Notes under the pieces: model-generated | What the model was told of the DNA's origin: nothing | Database searches by the model: none | The model's input: only the letters and a program-made list of their open reading frames with translations | Origin: Candidatus Aenigmatarchaeota archaeon | GTDB lineage: Archaea > Aenigmatarchaeota > Aenigmatarchaeia > QMZP01 > QMZT01 | Assembly (NCBI GenBank): GCA_043808015.1 | Contig: JAZDFI010000022.1 | Coordinates: 1-13,089, forward strand | Reading direction: 5' to 3' | Length of the DNA stretch: 13,089 bases | Shown: one piece after another, positions 1,885-12,720 of the stretch | Position numbering within the stretch: the first letter of the stretch is position 1 | How the letters are laid out: each line of letters begins with the position of its first letter | Made by a program: the position numbers and the translations under genes

Positions 1885-2042
1885 GGACCAGCGAAAGACG
1901 CAGGCAAGCCCGCGTCGAAATGCCGGGTGTTCTATAATATATTTGAATATAATAAAAGGGTTTTAGCCGTGCGGATAAAGCCGTGGCTATACTGGGAAAT
2001 AAAAAGAAAAAGCACTGTTTTTGTCCCAACCCGATTAAGCCT

Positions 2043-3863: not shown

Positions 3864-5306
3864 ATGAAAAAAATAAGTCTCGTTTTCGGATTAGTTTTGG
3901 TTTCTGTTGTTTTTTTGTCAGGTTGCATCAACGTCAGCCCAGAGGCGCTGGCCATGGCGAACCCTCTGGTCAAGCAGTTCATGGAGCAATACCCGAATGC
4001 GAAAATAACCGTGAATCACTTTACCGCGGAGCAGAGCGCCCAGATACTTGAGAACATAAGCGCCGAGTGCGGCAATCCATACATAACCGCGAAGGAATTT
4101 TACAGGATAAGCATCGACGACCCGGACAGCGGGCTAAAAGCGTTAGCCTGGATTGACTGGGAGACGAGAAATATCGAGTGTGCCGTCAAGTACAGCAGCG
4201 GCCTGAACAAGACGATATCCAAGCCCGGTGAAGACAACCAGGAATGCAAGTCCCACGCCGAAGTGAAGTGCTACGGCGACCACGTTTACTGGTTCGATTC
4301 GTGCGGCCATAAGGAAGAGAAGAAAGAATACTGCACGTCCGGCTGCGAAAACGGCTTCTGTAAAAGCAAGGAAGGTTGCACCGAGCACGCTGGGGCGAAA
4401 TGCGCTGATGGCCATGTCTACTGGTACGACAGCTGCGACAACAAGGAAGACAAGAAAGAATATTGCCAGAATGGCTGCGAGAACGGCGCGTGCATCGCTA
4501 CAGAGAAGACCTGCTTGAACGAGGGAGAGAGCAAGCCCGTCATCGCGAACCCGCTGCCATGCTGCGAGAGTCTTAGTCTCATACCCCCGAAGGCAGAAAA
4601 CCTTGTGGGCATATACGGGTACTGCACCGCGAAATGCGGCAACGGCATTTGCAATGAAATCGAGACCGCATACAACTGCCCATCGGATTGCGGCAACGCA
4701 AACTGCACCGATTCGGACGGCGGGAAGGACTATTATGTGAAAGGGACGGCAACCCTTGGCGAACAGTCGCTCACCGACCACTGCAACGACGACGGCACGC
4801 TGACGGAGAAATACTGCGAGGGCAACGAGATAAAAGCCGAGTCAGTCTCCTGCCCGACAGGCTATAATTGCGAAGATGCCAGATGCATCATAGCTTCACA
4901 GTCCGATTGCACCGATTCGGACGGCGGGAAGGACTACTATGTCAAAGGCACGGCGACACTTGGTAGTTCTTCTGGGGGCGATTTTTGCATTGGAAACGTT
5001 CTGACAGAAAGGTTCTGCAACGAATATGGCAACATAGACATGGTCACTTACAACTGCACAAGCGAAGGCAAGCAGTGCGGGGACGGGAAGTGCATTATTG
5101 CATCGCAGTCAAATTGTAGCGATTCCGATGGAGGAATTGATTATTATGTCAAGGGAACTGCGACGCTTGGAGCCTCGCAAGGCGGAGATTTTTGCATTGG
5201 AAACGTTCTGACAGAAAGGTTCTGCAACGAATATGGCAACATAGACATGGTCACTTACAACTGCACAAGCGAAGGCAAGCAGTGCGGGGACTCTAGGTGC
5301 TTGTAG
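3864..5306 (+). CDS. Cys-rich secreted lipoprotein/surface protein with tandem repeat modules
   Basis: MKK plus hydrophobic signal peptide with lipobox FLSG^C; two HAxxKCxxxHVYWxDSC...KKEYCxxGCENGxC modules; one CGNGIC..E...NCPSDC module; three CxDSDGG-x-DYYVKGTATLG modules. Confidence 0.9.
   Translation: MKKISLVFGLVLVSVVFLSGCINVSPEALAMANPLVKQFMEQYPNAKITVNHFTAEQSAQILENISAECGNPYITAKEFYRISIDDPDSGLKALAWIDWETRNIECAVKYSSGLNKTISKPGEDNQECKSHAEVKCYGDHVYWFDSCGHKEEKKEYCTSGCENGFCKSKEGCTEHAGAKCADGHVYWYDSCDNKEDKKEYCQNGCENGACIATEKTCLNEGESKPVIANPLPCCESLSLIPPKAENLVGIYGYCTAKCGNGICNEIETAYNCPSDCGNANCTDSDGGKDYYVKGTATLGEQSLTDHCNDDGTLTEKYCEGNEIKAESVSCPTGYNCEDARCIIASQSDCTDSDGGKDYYVKGTATLGSSSGGDFCIGNVLTERFCNEYGNIDMVTYNCTSEGKQCGDGKCIIASQSNCSDSDGGIDYYVKGTATLGASQGGDFCIGNVLTERFCNEYGNIDMVTYNCTSEGKQCGDSRCL
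4704..5303 (+). repeat. Three ~204-207 bp intragenic CxDSDGG repeat units, including a 105-bp exact duplication
   Basis: 4980-5084 is identical to 5187-5291 (offset 207); 4704-4732 is identical to 4908-4936 (29 bp, offset 204). Confidence 0.93.
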
Positions 5307-5314
5307 GAATCTGA

Positions 5315-5328
5315 ATAAAAAAGAGAAA
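5315..5328 (-). terminator. Oligo-T terminator downstream of tRNA-Ser
   Basis: TTTCTCTTTTTTAT directly follows the discriminator base on the minus strand. Confidence 0.65.
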
Positions 5329-5452
5329 CGCTGAGAGCAGGACTCGAACCTGCGCGGGCTATTCACCCACAGGGTTAGCAACCTTACGCGGCTTTCGATT
5401 TTTTCGAAATTCTCGAAAAGCCTCTGCGCCTTAACCACTCGGCCATCTCAGC
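5329..5452 (-). tRNA. tRNA-Ser(GCT) with a 40-nt intron at non-canonical position 29/30 (intron 5384-5423); CCA not encoded
   Basis: Acceptor GCTGAGA/TCTCAGC with G discriminator, long variable arm, T arm GCAGG-TTCGAGT-CCTGC. Removing the insert restores CAG^GG-TTGCTAA-CCCTG. Junction: helix GCGC/GCGT, cuts AG^A and AA^G, inner stem GGCTTT/AAAGCC, no outer helix (relaxed BHB). Confidence 0.95.
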
Positions 5453-6092
5453 AGATTAATATTTCGTCCGCACCTATTTCAGCGAACTTTTTCTGTTTTG
5501 CATTATTATGTGGGTTTATCTCTTTAAAAAATCTTTCCATGTTCTTTCTGCCGGCCAAGCGTATCTTAAGGTTGGATTTTTCGAGCCAGAAATGAAAATC
5601 TAGGTCGCGCAGTATTTCCTTAAGCTGAACAAGATGCGCCAGCGACGGGCTGGAAATTTCTAATATAGGATTCCTGTATTTTCCCGACGTGCGGCGGAGA
5701 TAGAGAGAACCGCTCGAGTCGAAGACGCCTCGTACGTACGCCTTCCAGTATTCGTGGTTGTTGAAAATCAGCTTCGGCATGCGGAGCGCGTGCGCCTTCC
5801 TGCCTATTGGGAATTGCAGGTACGTATGGAACGTTTTCATCGCCTGCCCGCCGCACGCGCGGATGCAAATGACGTACCCGTTCTGGTGTTTCCTTTTGAC
5901 GAGCCTGAGCTCCCTGCCAAAAACCTTTTCGAAGAGCGGCTTCACGTGGCTGCGGTAGTATTGCATCTCGTCCTTCGTGCTCCTAATCTCTAGAATGTAA
6001 CTTCTCGCGGTCGCGTAGATGCTGCCGTCGCCGGCGAATATGCCGCACGCCTCGCCCAGCGTGTCCTTGTTGAGCGAAAGGAGATGGAACAT
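5448..6092 (-). CDS. Free-standing two-motif LAGLIDADG (intein DOD-like) endonuclease-fold protein, second motif degenerate
   Basis: Motif 1 LGEACGIFAGDGS, a GRKA segment, motif 2 AYVRGVFDSSGS, C-terminal RFFKEI; basic protein with no intein splicing ends. ATG 6092 is preferred over GTG 6140 because TATTTAAA lies about 23-30 nt upstream. Confidence 0.88.
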   Translation of the reverse strand: MFHLLSLNKDTLGEACGIFAGDGSIYATARSYILEIRSTKDEMQYYRSHVKPLFEKVFGRELRLVKRKHQNGYVICIRACGGQAMKTFHTYLQFPIGRKAHALRMPKLIFNNHEYWKAYVRGVFDSSGSLYLRRTSGKYRNPILEISSPSLAHLVQLKEILRDLDFHFWLEKSNLKIRLAGRKNMERFFKEINPHNNAKQKKFAEIGADEILIC

Positions 6093-6112
6093 GATTGTTA
6101 TTTGAGGAACGT

Positions 6113-6155
6113 GGTTTAAATATCCGCGCCTTAAAGTCACAAACTTTATAAAGCC
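6113..6155. promoter_or_regulatory. Divergent promoter region for the LAGLIDADG and PRC-barrel genes
   Basis: Minus-strand TATTTAAA at 6115-6122; palindromic CTTTATAAAG at 6144-6153 preceded by an A-rich BRE-like acaaa on the plus strand. Confidence 0.55.
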
Positions 6156-6212: not shown

Positions 6213-6512
6213 ATGGCAATAAAAGTTTCGAGCATTTCCGAAACGTACGGCAAGGACGTTTTCACGAACAAGGGTATGTTCTGCGGAAAAGTCGAGGATA
6301 TCGAGTGTGACCTAAAGCGCTTCAAGGTTCGCTCACTGGTCGTGCGCGCGGCAAAGGAATCTTACATCTCCAAGATGCTCGGCAGCAAGAAAGGCGTTAT
6401 CATCCCGTTCCCCATGGTAGAATCCATCGGCGACGTGATACTGATAAAGCACATCTCGCTTCCGGTCGCGGATGATGAGCCCTCGAAAGACGGCGCAGCC
6501 GAAACAGAGTAA
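6213..6512 (+). CDS. Stand-alone PRC-barrel protein (CdpB-like, possible cell-division role)
   Basis: YGKDVFTNKG..GKVEDI...GVIIPFPMVESIGDVILIK is the archaeal PRC-barrel pattern. SD-like GAGGGGTG precedes ATG 6213; acidic tail. Confidence 0.88.
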   Translation: MAIKVSSISETYGKDVFTNKGMFCGKVEDIECDLKRFKVRSLVVRAAKESYISKMLGSKKGVIIPFPMVESIGDVILIKHISLPVADDEPSKDGAAETE

Positions 6513-9560: not shown

Positions 9561-10814
9561 ATGGACACTAGCGCGAGAATAGCTGAAAGGATGTCGAGGC
9601 TTGGAACCGAAACGGCGTTTTCCGTTTCTCTCGAGGCGCGCGAATTCGCCTGCAGCGGCAAAAAAATATATCCCTTCCACCTTGGCGACATGAACATCAG
9701 GACACCCAAGAAGATTATTGATGCGGCGAGGAAAGCGATGGAAGACGGCAAGACGGGCTACTGCCCAAGCGCGGGCATTCCCGAGCTTAGGGCGGCGCTG
9801 GCCAAAGACATGAGCAGCTCGCGCGGCATAAAGCTCACGGCGAAAAACGTATCGATACAGACGGGAGGCAAGCCGGTCATCATGAAGTTCGTCATGGCTT
9901 TCATGAATCCCGGGGACGAGGTGATGTACCCGAATCCCGGATACCCGATTTACGAGTCGCAGATACGCTTCCACGGAGGCATAGCGAAACCTTACGGCTT
10001 CAGGATGAGCGACAACGGATTCAGCCTGGATATGGAACAGCTCGAGAGGCTTGCCACTCCAAAGACGAAGCTGTTCATTTTCAACAACTACCACAATCCG
10101 ATGGGCGCGGAATCCGACCCTATGGAAATGAACAGGATTACCGAATTCTGCAAAAGGCACGACCTGCTCGTGCTGTGCGACGAGGCGTATTTCGACATAA
10201 CTTACGACGGAAAGCCCAAGAGCCTCGTTTCGTATCCGGGCATGGCCGAGCGCACGCTGATACTTTACACGTTCTCCAAGAAGTTCGCCATGACGGGCTG
10301 GCGGCTCGGGGCGGCGGTCGGCCCGGAATGGATGATAGAGCAGATTAACCGCCTGAACGTGAATGACGAGTCGTGCTCGAACCACTTCATCCAGTGGGCC
10401 GCTGTCGAGGCGCTCACGAACACTCAGAAGGAAACGCAGCAGATACTCGATACGCTGAAAAAACGCAGGGACCTTGCGTGCAAGATGCTCAACACCATAA
10501 AGGGCATCAGGGTTTTCAAGCCCAATTCGACGTTCTACGTCTTCCCCGACGTGACCGAAGCGATGCGCAATCTCGGTTTCAACGACGTCGAAAAGTTCAG
10601 GCGGTTCATACTGGAGACGACTGGCGTATCGTTCTGCACGCGCCGCCATTTCGGGACGCCGCTGGATGACGAGAAGCACGAGTTCATCCGCCTCGCTTAT
10701 TCAGGCATCGACCTGGAGGACATCAGGGAAGGCCTGGCGAAGATGAAAAGCGCGATTGAGAACCCGTCGGTTTCAAAAAAGTGGCTTTCCGAAAAAAAGC
10801 GCAAAGACGTCTGA
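9561..10814 (+). CDS. PLP-dependent aminotransferase class I/II (aspartate aminotransferase-like)
   Basis: YxxxxGIPELR, NPGDEV..PNPGYPIY, HNPMG, DEAY, FSKKFAMTGWRLG (PLP lysine), FYVFP, IRLAYS. Confidence 0.95.
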   Translation: MDTSARIAERMSRLGTETAFSVSLEAREFACSGKKIYPFHLGDMNIRTPKKIIDAARKAMEDGKTGYCPSAGIPELRAALAKDMSSSRGIKLTAKNVSIQTGGKPVIMKFVMAFMNPGDEVMYPNPGYPIYESQIRFHGGIAKPYGFRMSDNGFSLDMEQLERLATPKTKLFIFNNYHNPMGAESDPMEMNRITEFCKRHDLLVLCDEAYFDITYDGKPKSLVSYPGMAERTLILYTFSKKFAMTGWRLGAAVGPEWMIEQINRLNVNDESCSNHFIQWAAVEALTNTQKETQQILDTLKKRRDLACKMLNTIKGIRVFKPNSTFYVFPDVTEAMRNLGFNDVEKFRRFILETTGVSFCTRRHFGTPLDDEKHEFIRLAYSGIDLEDIREGLAKMKSAIENPSVSKKWLSEKKRKDV

Positions 10815-10857
10815 TGCTTCTGCCCGGATTTATAAAATTCTTAATTATATAATTTTT

Positions 10858-12123
10858 ATGAAAAATGTAGTTTTGGTTGCCATAGGCAAACAAAGAAGGA
10901 ACCATCATTTTTTTCCGCTTGCCTTATACTACCTTAAAGCGGCTCTTCTGGAGGACAAAAAAATCGCTGAAAAGATAAACATCGGCATCGAGGAGTTCAT
11001 GGTCGAGGATTCCGATGAACACATACTGAAACGCATTCTGGAGTCGAGACCTGAAATAATCGGTTTCTCCTGCTATGTGTGGAATATTGAGAAAATCCTC
11101 ACACTTTCTTCCAAGATCAAAAGCGAGAATAATAATGTGAAAATTGTGCTCGGAGGGCCCGAGACCAGTCCTATTGCCTCGCTGATACTCAGGCAAAATC
11201 ATGCCGTAGACATAATAGTGAGAGACGAGGGAGAAATAACGTTCAGGGAACTGGTAAAAATACATGTCCTGACATCCGGAAATTTTGCCGGTTTGAAAGG
11301 CATAACATTCAGGCATGGTAGCAAAATAATAGAAAACGTGAGAATGCCAATCATAAAAGATCTCAGCACCATACCTTCGCCTTTTTTGAAAGGCATAGTT
11401 GACATGGAAAAACACAATCTTTTCATTGGAATAGAGCCATGCAGGGGTTGTTATTTCAGATGCCGCTATTGTTTTTTCAGCAAGAAATACGATGGCGTAA
11501 GATATTTTCCTTCAAAGAGGATTGAGAGCGAGATAAAATATATACTCGACTTTGAGCCCAGGACATTCTACATGATGGACCCTTCGTTCGGGGTCAATAT
11601 GAGCATTTCTAACAAAATCTGCGATACAATTATAAAATACAACAGGAAAACGGCTTTTTTCGGAGAATTGCGCACAGAATTGATGACTAAAAAAATAGTG
11701 GCCAAAATGGAAAAAGCTAATTTCAAGGACATAGAGGTGGGGCTGCAAAGCACGAATAAAAAAGCACTGATAAAAATGGGAAGAAACCTGAACATGGAGA
11801 AGTTCATGAAAGGCTTCAGGCTGTTTGATAATACTGGCATCAGAATCGCCATCGACCTTATCGTGGGCCTGCCCGGAGACGATCTGGAACATTTCAAAAA
11901 ATCCATAGACTTCGTAAAGTCCTTGGGGCCCAAGTACACATATGCTTATCGCCTGATGGTTTTGCCGGGAACCTATTTTTATGAAAACGCGGATAAGATG
12001 GGACTTAAATTTCAGGAAAAAGCCCCGCACTACGTGACTGCGACAAGAACATTCAGCGAAAGCGATATAACGAAAGCCATGGTGCTTGGCATTAAAGCCA
12101 TGGAAAACAACAAGCTTCCATAA
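10858..12123 (+). CDS. B12-binding domain radical SAM protein (class B methyltransferase-like)
   Basis: PLALYYL, IIGFSCYVWN, VLGGPE, DEGE, RGCYFRCRYC (CxxxCxxC), VGLQS, DLIVGLPGD, VLPGT. ATG 10858 follows a TTTATAAA box near 10829. Confidence 0.93.
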   Translation: MKNVVLVAIGKQRRNHHFFPLALYYLKAALLEDKKIAEKINIGIEEFMVEDSDEHILKRILESRPEIIGFSCYVWNIEKILTLSSKIKSENNNVKIVLGGPETSPIASLILRQNHAVDIIVRDEGEITFRELVKIHVLTSGNFAGLKGITFRHGSKIIENVRMPIIKDLSTIPSPFLKGIVDMEKHNLFIGIEPCRGCYFRCRYCFFSKKYDGVRYFPSKRIESEIKYILDFEPRTFYMMDPSFGVNMSISNKICDTIIKYNRKTAFFGELRTELMTKKIVAKMEKANFKDIEVGLQSTNKKALIKMGRNLNMEKFMKGFRLFDNTGIRIAIDLIVGLPGDDLEHFKKSIDFVKSLGPKYTYAYRLMVLPGTYFYENADKMGLKFQEKAPHYVTATRTFSESDITKAMVLGIKAMENNKLP

Positions 12124-12233
12124 ATTACCGCCATTTTTTGTAAAATCTAAAATAAATACCAATAGATGGTGTAGATGTTATACTTGGTCCAATTTTTTAT
12201 ATGTGGTTATGATAGTATCAACATTCCCAAGAA

Positions 12234-12473
12234 GTGATGAAATTCGATATAAATAAATATGGTGAAAATATCGTAAAGAAAAAATTCGAGATGGAAATAG
12301 AAATCCCGAACAATTCGGAAGCTGAGTACAACCAGATTATCGAATGGGTCAACGCCAAGAACCACAACGACAGGTGGAAGTTCGTGAAGAAAACGGCGTC
12401 CAACAACGATTTCCTGATGTGGAAGCTGAAAAAAAAGATGGCAGCGAACAAACCTGTAATGTTTAAAGCCTGA
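12234..12473 (+). CDS. Small hypothetical protein (about 78 aa)
   Basis: Lys/Asn/Glu-rich natural-looking composition; AAGTGA SD-like sequence at the GTG/ATG start; T-tract downstream. No recognised motif. Confidence 0.55.
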   Translation: MMKFDINKYGENIVKKKFEMEIEIPNNSEAEYNQIIEWVNAKNHNDRWKFVKKTASNNDFLMWKLKKKMAANKPVMFKA

Positions 12474-12550
12474 ACCTGACCCATGCTTTTTATTTTACTA
12501 TCATATCCATACCAGTATTTTTACCAAAGCTTCGCCATTTTTTAGCATGT

Positions 12551-12557
12551 AAAAAAA
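12551..12557 (-). terminator. T7 terminator after tRNA-Pro
   Basis: TTTTTTT begins 5 nt after the discriminator base on the minus strand. Confidence 0.65.
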
Positions 12558-12561
12558 CCGA

Positions 12562-12720
12562 TGGGGCCGCTGGGATTCTCAAAGCCATTTTCCGTAAACG
12601 CTTTTGCGCTAAGCGGAAAGGGTTTATTTGAACCCAGGTCGCCAGCACCCCAAGCTGGAATGATCATGGCGTCAAGCTCAAAAGCTCGAGGATGACTAGA
12701 CCAAGCTACACTACGGCCCC
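12562..12720 (-). tRNA. tRNA-Pro(GGG) with two non-canonical introns: 33 nt at 20b/21 (12665-12697) and 51 nt at 59/60 (12576-12626); CCA not encoded
   Basis: Spliced 75-nt sequence GGGGCCGTAGTGTAGCTTGGTCT^ATCATTCCAGCTTGGGGTGCTGGCGACCTGGGTTCAAA^TCCCAGCGGCCCCA folds as a cloverleaf. Intron 1: helix TGGT/GCCA, cuts CT^A and TG^A, inner GTCA/TGAC. Intron 2: helix TTCA/TGAG, two AA^T bulges, outer CTGGG/CCCAG. Confidence 0.95.

Follow-up and report, generated by a model that had tools for sequence, protein, structure and literature searches.

A free-standing LAGLIDADG gene that ends within an archaeal tRNA-Ser gene belongs to a class-wide family of tRNA-abutting genes

The stretch of DNA analysed here (the window) comprises 13,089 nucleotides from an archaeon of the Candidatus Aenigmatarchaeota (assembly GCA_043808015.1, contig JAZDFI010000022.1) and is contig C22 of a genome of 934 kb that is 90.7% complete. 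On its minus strand, the window contains an open reading frame (ORF) for a LAGLIDADG protein, and the stop codon of this ORF lies within the gene for tRNA-Ser(GCT) that follows it. The ORF is a member of a clade that spans the class and consists of free-standing LAGLIDADG genes of the I-DmoI/I-Tsp061I type; in the Aenigmatarchaeota, these genes lie flush against tRNA genes. The explanation that we favour with moderate confidence is that a cassette consisting of a promoter, the ORF and a spare 5' exon entered the tRNA-Ser gene at its intron site, and that the encoded protein persists as a DNA binder and at most as a nickase. An earlier model-made reading of the letters alone, which is called the sequence-only reading below, had proposed that the endonuclease and the intron of the tRNA gene act as partners.

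The tRNA-Ser(GCT) gene at 5452-5329 of the minus strand was matched by the Rfam model RF00005 with 42.1 bits (model positions 1-71) and was also called by ARAGORN when introns were allowed; a default tRNA search of the window called no tRNA. The TGA at 5450-5448 corresponds to nt 3-5 of the tRNA, and the intergenic space is therefore nil. The coordinates thus confirm that the last bases of the ORF together with its stop are nt 1-5 of the tRNA on the same strand, as the sequence-only reading had stated. The intron that it had placed at 29/30 was recovered by reading and by folding and comprises the 40 nt from 5423 to 5384. In the fold of the pre-tRNA, the 5' splice site lies in a 3-nt bulge, which is accompanied by a 4-bp helix (24-27/64-67), and the 3' site is unpaired. 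As assigned by eye from this fold, the motif is a relaxed bulge-helix-bulge. Introns homologous to that of the window and ending in GCG(T/C)AA are present in the genomes G009, G010, G014, G018 and G022.

According to the alignments, a single chain bears two LAGLIDADG motifs, which is characteristic of the monomeric two-motif type. The 214-residue protein was matched by the Pfam families PF14527 (1.5e-10) and PF14528 (5e-5), the best match being the WhiA LAGLIDADG-like domain; the NCBIfam model of WhiA, TIGR00647, scored 19.6 and stayed below its cut-off of 44.1. A phmmer search with the single protein against the PDB sequences gave 0 matches. With a profile of the LAGLIDADG family, the same sequences yielded intein endonucleases (7qsu, 3.9e-17), 2dch (5.4e-14) and I-DmoI (2.6e-8). 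The AlphaFold2 model of the protein (pLDDT 93.9, pTM 0.91) contains the duplicated alpha-beta-beta-alpha-beta-beta-alpha fold. In a Foldseek comparison, the highest TM-score (0.70/0.73) was obtained for I-Tsp061I (2dch), an archaeal intron-encoded enzyme, and 2dch, I-DmoI, I-AniI and I-SceI were all matched at probability 1.00, which assigns the model to the monomeric two-domain LAGLIDADG type. These fold and family matches, together with the adjacency described below, bear out the earlier claim of a free-standing LAGLIDADG protein tied to a tRNA. Each LAGLIDADG motif should end in an acidic residue: Asp22 is kept, and the second position is occupied by Ser127. Since the second catalytic Asp is a Ser in the genus of the window, double-strand cutting by this protein is doubtful.

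The genome contains eight LAGLIDADG paralogues, four of which end within a tRNA gene on the same strand. The overlaps amount to 5 nt (C22), 10 nt (C15), 10 nt (C8) and about 29 nt (C14); the stop codon on C14 lies in the D-loop intron of the partner tRNA. By eye, the partner on C8 is tRNA-Gln(CTG), and that on C15 looks like tRNA-Ala(GGC). All 1205 mechanically defined ORFs of the genome that reach 150 aa or more served as a control, and ends located between -35 and +15 nt of the start of a same-strand tRNA were counted. Six ORFs end in this interval, namely 4/8 LAGLIDADG genes versus 2/1197 others (Fisher 1.2e-8). Overlap with the tRNA is confined to the four LAGLIDADG genes; the other two ORFs stop 9 and 14 nt short of it. 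A tRNA-Glu with a 720-nt intron that ARAGORN called on C9 was read as a false call, and this region is devoid of a LAGLIDADG frame.

A profile deduced from five paralogues found matches in 50 of the 61 genomes of the same order. In order to define free-standing homologues, the listed matches with open frames of less than 420 aa were examined, which gave 101 sequences; longer frames, mostly inteins, and 38 unlisted matches are outside this count. Among the matches listed, 38 of the 101 homologues abut a tRNA end. They form a same-strand class (27/101), in which the tRNA starts between -32 and +12 nt from the end of the ORF (one at -83), and a convergent class (11/101), in which the 3' part of the tRNA overlaps or abuts the end of the ORF. 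In the same-strand class, 23 of the 27 tRNAs were called by both ARAGORN and our own detector, and many were confirmed by Rfam. Rfam also confirmed five tRNAs of the convergent class (L024, L027, L038, L049, L061), which rules out that the opposite-strand tRNAs of these loci are miscalls of ARAGORN; the convergent class is therefore real. The other convergent tRNAs (L018, L022, L032, L047, L050, L060) were called by ARAGORN and/or our own detector only. It has to be considered that all genomes are metagenome assemblies, that the tRNA calls at intron-rich genes come partly from our own detector, and that the isotypes given by ARAGORN are unreliable for intron-rich tRNAs, which makes isotypes other than Ser(GCT) uncertain. 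Upstream of the LAGLIDADG-tRNA pair, L020 and L029 contain a same-strand 5S rRNA gene; L023 and L025 have 5S genes as well, the one in L025 being downstream of the ORF.

In a FastTree phylogeny of 94 proteins, for which local support values only were calculated, one clade of 51 rows (support 98) contains all 11 convergent cases and every same-strand case but one (26/27). It further includes two genes located inside 23S rRNA genes (L034, L052) and four genes with a tRNA just upstream. Across the phylum, 301 genomes were searched, and 107 of them, all belonging to the same class, gave matches at E <= 1e-25. The 39 assessable loci from other orders of this class comprise 11 same-strand and eight convergent cases, three with the tRNA upstream and 17 with none detected; the tRNA-abutting fraction is thus 19/39. 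The position of homologues next to tRNA genes, by which the sequence-only reading was to be judged, recurs in the genome, in the order and in the other orders of the class. Overlaps of certain lengths recur, namely 10 and 15 nt in the same-strand class and 19 nt in the convergent class. As determined by eye, the former are due to TAG at nt 8-10 and 13-15 of the tRNA, respectively, and the latter to a TGA antisense to the TTCAAAT of the T-loop. Because the recurring overlaps match stops in conserved nucleotides of the tRNA, these ORFs appear to have no stop of their own and to read into the tRNA. Judging from these positions, a stop codon within the tRNA is a family trait of the tRNA-abutting LAGLIDADG ORFs.

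The region upstream of the ORF (Table 1) was aligned for eight alleles with the gene, from the start of the PRC-barrel gene to the ATG. Three blocks stand out: the ribosome-binding site of the PRC-barrel gene, TTATAAAG, and TAAGGCGC-N3-4-TTTAAA. Both TTATAAAG and TAAGGCGC are invariant in 8/8 alleles. The empty alleles of G014, G018 and G008 have the same box TTTATAAAG about 31 nt before tRNA +1; this box probably served as the original promoter of tRNA-Ser, of the divergent PRC-barrel gene, or of both. In the upstream stretches of empty alleles that were inspected by eye, TAAGGCGC is missing in this form. The sequence TTAAGGCGCAG corresponds to nt 19-29 of tRNA-Ser, the stretch of the exon that adjoins the intron site; it is matched at 11/11 positions in G009 and G013. 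The exon copy at 6134-6123 of the window is directly followed by TATTTAAA at 6122-6115. The core TTTAAA is found in 8/8 orthologous loci, in seven of them 21-23 nt before the ATG and in G005 7 nt before it. Across 691 ORFs of the genome, TATA-like hexamers peak sharply at -27 to -24 before the ATG, which, to judge from this spacing, is the mark of leaderless transcripts. The copy at 6134-6123 can be read as the remnant of a displaced 5' exon and/or as an operator-like half-site.

Table 1. Positions of the LAGLIDADG ORF, the tRNA-Ser(GCT) gene and associated elements in the window.
Feature	Position	Strand	Remarks
LAGLIDADG ORF	5448..6092	(-)	ATG at 6092, TGA 5450-5448; 214 aa + stop
Motif 1, GIFAGDGS	6044-6021	(-)	residues 17-24; Asp22 = 6029-6027
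Motif 2, RGVFDSSGS	5732-5706	(-)	residues 121-129; Ser127 = 5714-5712
TTTTTTAAA, T6A3 tract inside ORF	5523..5531	(-)	Phe-Phe-Lys codons; candidate internal tRNA promoter or terminator
tRNA-Ser(GCT) exon 1	5424..5452	(-)	nt 1-29; nt 1-5 shared with last ORF codon and stop
Intron at 29/30	5384..5423	(-)	40 nt; exon join taken from intron-less same-genus allele; fold
tRNA-Ser(GCT) exon 2	5329..5383	(-)	anticodon GCT at 5379-5377
T-rich tract 3' of tRNA	5312..5328	(-)	likely terminator (termination inferred)
TATTTAAA, TATA box of endonuclease gene	6115..6122	(-)	centred 26-27 nt before ATG; leaderless-type
TTAAGGCGCGGA, copy of tRNA-Ser nt 19-30	6123..6134	(-)	11/12 match, ending at 29/30; direct repeat with 5423-5434
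TTTATAAAG, TATA-like box	6144..6152	(-)	common to alleles without endonuclease gene
PRC-barrel gene, divergent	6213..6512	(+)	synteny anchor; Pfam PF05239 at 1e-9

Exon remnants located directly before a TATA box and an ORF were also identified in three other lineages. In L029, 22/22 nt correspond to nt 1-22 of the tRNA and are followed by GCAT. The remnant in L048 matches in 24/26 nt, and the working copy of this tRNA has an intron exactly at the end of the remnant. In L017, the match is 13/13 nt, followed by GGATA. The remnants of L029 and L017 are intron-less copies that run to about nt 26, and a D-loop intron interrupts the working tRNA copy that follows the ORF; it could thus be ruled out that these two remnants end where the D-loop intron begins. 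Degenerate remnants were seen in L020, L023 and at the C8 gene of the genome studied here. For tRNA-Gln, an intron in the 5' third is present in 9/10 alleles with the gene versus 8/29 empty alleles (p = 8.7e-4), and within the order of the window in 5/5 versus 8/29 (p = 4.6e-3), where the counts were made by eye at one locus per genome (30/59 pattern matches) and the statistics ignore relatedness.

The history of the tRNA-Ser locus was followed by means of the PRC-barrel gene. Among the loci sampled from the order, tblastn found this gene in 27; a tRNA whose anticodon loop contains GCT is present in 25 of them and not in the other two. In eight genomes, all of family f1, the space between the PRC-barrel gene and tRNA-Ser is occupied by the endonuclease gene: G000, G002, G003 and G004, which form one genus, as well as G005, G009, G010 and G013. 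The same site is empty in nine other f1 genomes and in all sampled genomes of other families, and both states occur within the genera g6 and g7. Within f1, the presence of the gene at this fixed site of conserved synteny is thus optional (eight occupied versus nine empty). From this distribution, the Ser-linked gene appears to have been inherited vertically within one family, with losses. The junction varies: ORF and tRNA overlap by 5 nt in G000 and G003, by 9 nt in G002 and by 21 nt in G005, G010 and G013; in G004 a spacer of 12 nt separates them, and in G009 they are 3 nt apart, or about 17 nt when the tRNA is taken to begin at the second GCTGGGT repeat. Two further loci, L125 (G047:C9) and L133 (G049:C77), have about 480 and 735 nt, respectively, between the PRC-barrel gene and tRNA-Ser, with no LAGLIDADG match; these stretches represent some other insert at the same site. 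A near-copy of the 5' strand of the acceptor stem (GCTGGGTAAGG...) is found about 15-16 nt before the start of tRNA-Ser in L132 (G014), L137 (G018), L012 (G009), L116 (G013), L133 (G049) and L136 (G055), that is, in occupied and empty alleles alike.

Based on these observations, the following scenario is proposed. The cassette would have been made up of a leaderless-type promoter, with its TATA box 26 nt from the ATG, followed by an ORF that has neither its own stop nor its own terminator and by the whole 5' exon of the tRNA in a second copy. Position 29/30, the intron site, would have been its point of entry into an ancestral tRNA-Ser(GCT) gene, whether it arrived as an intron-borne gene that acquired an exon copy later or through one-sided repair of a cut, and part of the displaced 5' exon (nt 19-29) would have been left upstream beside the new promoter. 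Read-through from the cassette promoter would cross the ORF and extend into the tRNA, RNase P and the splicing endonuclease would release the tRNA from this transcript, and the ORF would end at the first stop offered by conserved nucleotides of the tRNA. A full-length candidate for the RNase P RNA was detected with 56 bits, which is below the cut-off of 84 bits, and the EndA gene is contained in a 398-aa frame of the genome. A joint mRNA-tRNA transcript whose stop codon is lost by RNase P cleavage, as the sequence-only reading had envisaged, is logically possible. Subsequently, the cassette would have been inherited vertically in one family with losses, and one catalytic Asp was lost in the genus of the window. 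Since this Asp has been lost and purifying selection nevertheless acts on the gene, the protein is most likely a sequence-specific DNA binder, and at most a nickase rather than a double-strand homing nuclease. It would recognise tRNA-Ser-like sites and could, by analogy to I-TevI, act for example as an autorepressor at the remnant beside the TATA box.

Several points weigh against this scenario. The source of the spare 5' exon that lies after the ORF appears to be a gap in the insertion model. The remnant in the window comprises only 11-12 nt, and in a pairwise test it scored no better than the best mismatched control; it stands because it is conserved in 8/8 alleles, the pairwise test alone being not significant. 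Furthermore, its distance from the old TATA box requires a later deletion of about 40 nt. Remnants of the 3' exon were searched for in 11 convergent loci and none was above chance; nor were 5' remnants found when 11 same-strand loci from the other orders were searched. In L028 and L030, enzymes with both catalytic Asp adjoin intron-less tRNAs. The loss of one Asp may abolish all activity. Finally, if the T6A3 tract inside the ORF is an internal promoter or terminator of the tRNA, the joint transcript is broken.

The partnership put forward by the sequence-only reading would mean that the enzyme still cuts or nicks intron-less tRNA-Ser genes at 29/30, that the intron protects its own allele, and that both spread together by collaborative homing, for which cyanophage psbA offers a precedent in the part of PMC6083498 considered here. 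We regard this as distinctly unlikely. It would explain why the exon remnant stops at the intron site, why the gene at tRNA-Gln goes with introns in the 5' region, and why the remnants of L029 and L017 are intron-less and their working copies are not. Moreover, both orthologues with two Asp (G009, G010) have the 29/30 intron, and the active site is damaged in 4/4 occupied alleles without it, but the comparison of 2/2 with 2/6 gives p = 0.21. Among the occupied alleles, G000, G004, G009 and G010 have the intron at 29/30, and G002, G003, G005 and G013 do not; G002 has a D-loop intron in its place. The 29/30 intron is also present in the three empty alleles of G014, G018 and G022. Within family f1 it thus occurs in 4/8 occupied versus 3/9 empty alleles (p = 0.42). 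For tRNA-Ser, intron and gene are therefore independent of each other, contrary to the expected co-occurrence, and it was this independence that the sequence-only reading had itself named as speaking against its proposal. An orthologue from the same genus with 94% identity adjoins an intron-less tRNA-Ser, the enzyme of the window has a Ser at the second catalytic position, and the locus looks vertically inherited across the genus. Due to the independence, an active partnership at this locus today is unlikely. What holds of the proposal is the history of the family, which the remnants tie to the intron site; for the present state of this locus, the independence, the lost Asp and the intron-less orthologue speak against it. 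The sequence-only reading had offered a maturase-like helper for the relaxed motif as a second option. Such a protein would bind the pre-tRNA or its own transcript and aid the splicing of the relaxed motif or the processing of the 5' end. The relaxed motif of the intron and a Foldseek comparison of the model, in which the fold is as close to I-AniI and bI3 maturase as to nucleases, are compatible with it. However, among the orthologous loci with the protein, some have no intron and others have a different one or one at another position, and a maturase role therefore does not fit. In addition, an Rfam scan of the window at E <= 1 gave two tRNAs only, with no group I intron and no other family, and an ordinary EndA gene is present. 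Such a helper has very little probability.

The gene might also be a decaying selfish element that has no present function and lies close to the tRNA merely as a result of genome compaction. Its patchy distribution, with empty sites even within g6 and g7, would agree with this, as would the state of the active site: the catalytic pair is Asp/Asp in G009 and G010, Asp/Ser in G000, G003 and G004, Asp/Arg in G002, Asn/Asn in G005 and Lys/Arg in G013, so that a catalytic position is replaced by Ser, Arg, Asn or Lys in 6/8 orthologues. Decay is nevertheless highly unlikely, given dN/dS values of 0.06-0.31 within the genus, intact frames in 8/8 genomes from at least 5 genera, 74 invariant columns among seven aligned orthologues, and the confinement of tRNA-start overlaps to LAGLIDADG ORFs in this genome. 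The gene of the window's genus is under purifying selection despite the loss of one catalytic Asp. Another arrangement, which we judge to be unlikely but worth keeping in mind, consists of two tightly packed transcription units: the tRNA would have its own promoter in the 3' end of the ORF, the overlap would be of no consequence, and the protein would still be a domesticated or selfish DNA binder. The candidate promoter is TTTTTTAAA, which resembles the TATA boxes of the genome and is conserved at the nucleotide level; its TTTTTT run is the same in 7/8 orthologues despite saturated synonymous sites between genera. The tract lies 54-82 nt before tRNA +1 across the orthologues, and in the window its T6 (5531-5526) is 74-79 nt upstream. 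Two statements of the sequence-only reading have to be revised accordingly: the T-tract after the tRNA is not the only clear one, and the tRNA lacks a well-spaced TATA box only in part, as a TATA-like tract exists inside the ORF at the distance given. The varying overlaps, spacer and gap at the junction described above likewise argue for separate units. On the other hand, the resulting leader of 26-55 nt would exceed that of other tRNAs of the genome, whose TATA-like tracts are located about 22-43 nt upstream (by eye), and a T6 tract is a typical archaeal transcription stop signal, which works against its reading as a promoter. The run TTTTTTA at 5531-5525 also has the form of a classical slippery heptamer.

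The inserted cassette that we favour can be compared with several known systems. The archaeal rRNA-intron enzymes I-DmoI and I-Tsp061I share the monomeric two-motif fold and the sequence family, and L034 and L052 place two members of the clade inside 23S rRNA genes. In contrast to these enzymes, the gene studied here is located outside the intron and before or, in other members, convergent to a complete tRNA, the ORF enters the tRNA, and one catalytic Asp has been lost in the genus of the window. Collaborative homing has been described for the free-standing endonuclease F-CphI and the psbA intron of cyanophage S-PM2 (PMC6083498, citing Zeng, Bonocora and Shub 2009). As far as the relevant part of that source goes, the two systems are similar in that a free-standing endonuclease gene adjoins an intron-bearing gene, which is the case at the locus of the window, where the footprints put the cassette junction at the intron site. 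They differ in the enzyme (Endo VII-like versus LAGLIDADG), in the intron (group I versus a protein-spliced bulge-helix-bulge intron) and in the host (phage versus archaeal chromosome); moreover, a spare 5' exon copy is present here, and gene and intron are independent for tRNA-Ser. SegB of phage T4, a free-standing GIY-YIG endonuclease in a tRNA gene cluster (PMC2988022), likewise is encoded between or beside tRNA genes. According to the excerpt of PMC2988022 considered here, its gene occupies an intergenic slot of its own and it targets the tRNA intergenic region; overlap with a tRNA or duplication of an exon is not described in that excerpt. The same excerpt presents I-TevI as an autorepressor at an operator that resembles its own homing site (PMC2988022). 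The partial copy of the presumed target that lies directly beside the promoter of the endonuclease gene is reminiscent of this operator; enzyme family and promoter type are different. WhiA is a domesticated LAGLIDADG transcription factor that resembles the protein studied here with respect to the best Pfam match, the fold and the loss of catalytic residues. Unlike WhiA, the protein of the window has no C-terminal helix-turn-helix and is matched in the LAGLIDADG region only, and its score for TIGR00647 is below the cut-off. Integrative elements of tRNA genes bring along a replacement tRNA end, use integrases and usually affect the 3' part of the tRNA. As with these elements, the insert is flanked by a direct repeat that represents part of the tRNA, and the tRNA itself remains complete; unlike them, the insert consists of a single gene, has no integrase and duplicates the 5' part.

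No description of LAGLIDADG genes abutting archaeal tRNA genes was found in the literature searched, a limited collection without supplements. How the tRNA introns of archaea come to occupy new genes and positions has yet to be settled; for those of Asgard archaea, a 2026 preprint leaves the arrival route open and, in the part considered here, does not mention homing or LAGLIDADG. An endonuclease family fixed to tRNA genes may help to explain the spread of archaeal tRNA introns. Tentatively, and with more doubt than belief, we suggest that LAGLIDADG cassettes act as vehicles that place protein-spliced introns in archaeal tRNA genes. After cleavage of an intron-less tRNA gene by the enzyme, repair would introduce the cassette, its spare 5' exon and an intron interrupting the target, and the recipient's own intron-less exon would stay behind as a remnant. 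Recombination between the two exon copies would then delete the endonuclease gene and leave an orphan short intron. If true, this would account for the many non-canonical tRNA introns of these lineages. Independently of this suggestion, an endonuclease family at tRNA ends with footprints at or next to intron sites offers testable material in the form of enzymes whose active sites are intact, empty and occupied alleles, and predicted targets. It illustrates that a selfish gene can live harmlessly before an essential RNA gene if the normal tRNA processing enzymes do the excision, and that a homing-type gene that has lost a catalytic residue of the nuclease site can still be kept by selection.

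Further features of the window and of the genome are as follows. Introns are present in about two thirds of the tRNAs called in the genome. The second tRNA of the window, at 1762-1884 of the minus strand, was called as tRNA-Gly(CCC) with an intron of about 50 nt by ARAGORN and reached 49.7 bits in Rfam. It is directly preceded (1885-1916, minus strand) by the hairpin GACGCGGGCTTGCCTGCGTC and, after it, TTTCGCTGGTCC. Similar hairpins, which show compensating changes in the stem and a TTTCGCT tail, precede at least eight other tRNAs of the genome. In the variable arm of tRNA-Ser, such hairpins are also inserted, in tandem in G008 and G013 and singly in G009. By their appearance, these tRNA-leader hairpins look like a small mobile or processing element. 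The 480-aa ORF at 3864-5306 of the plus strand, which is convergent on tRNA-Ser, has no match in Pfam or NCBIfam, and only its 3' part aligns in genomes of the same genus. The G+C content of the stretch 10800-12600 is 38-41%, compared to 50-59% in most of the remaining window. This stretch covers a gene for a B12-binding radical SAM protein (10756-12123) and, judging from its composition, may be a foreign segment.

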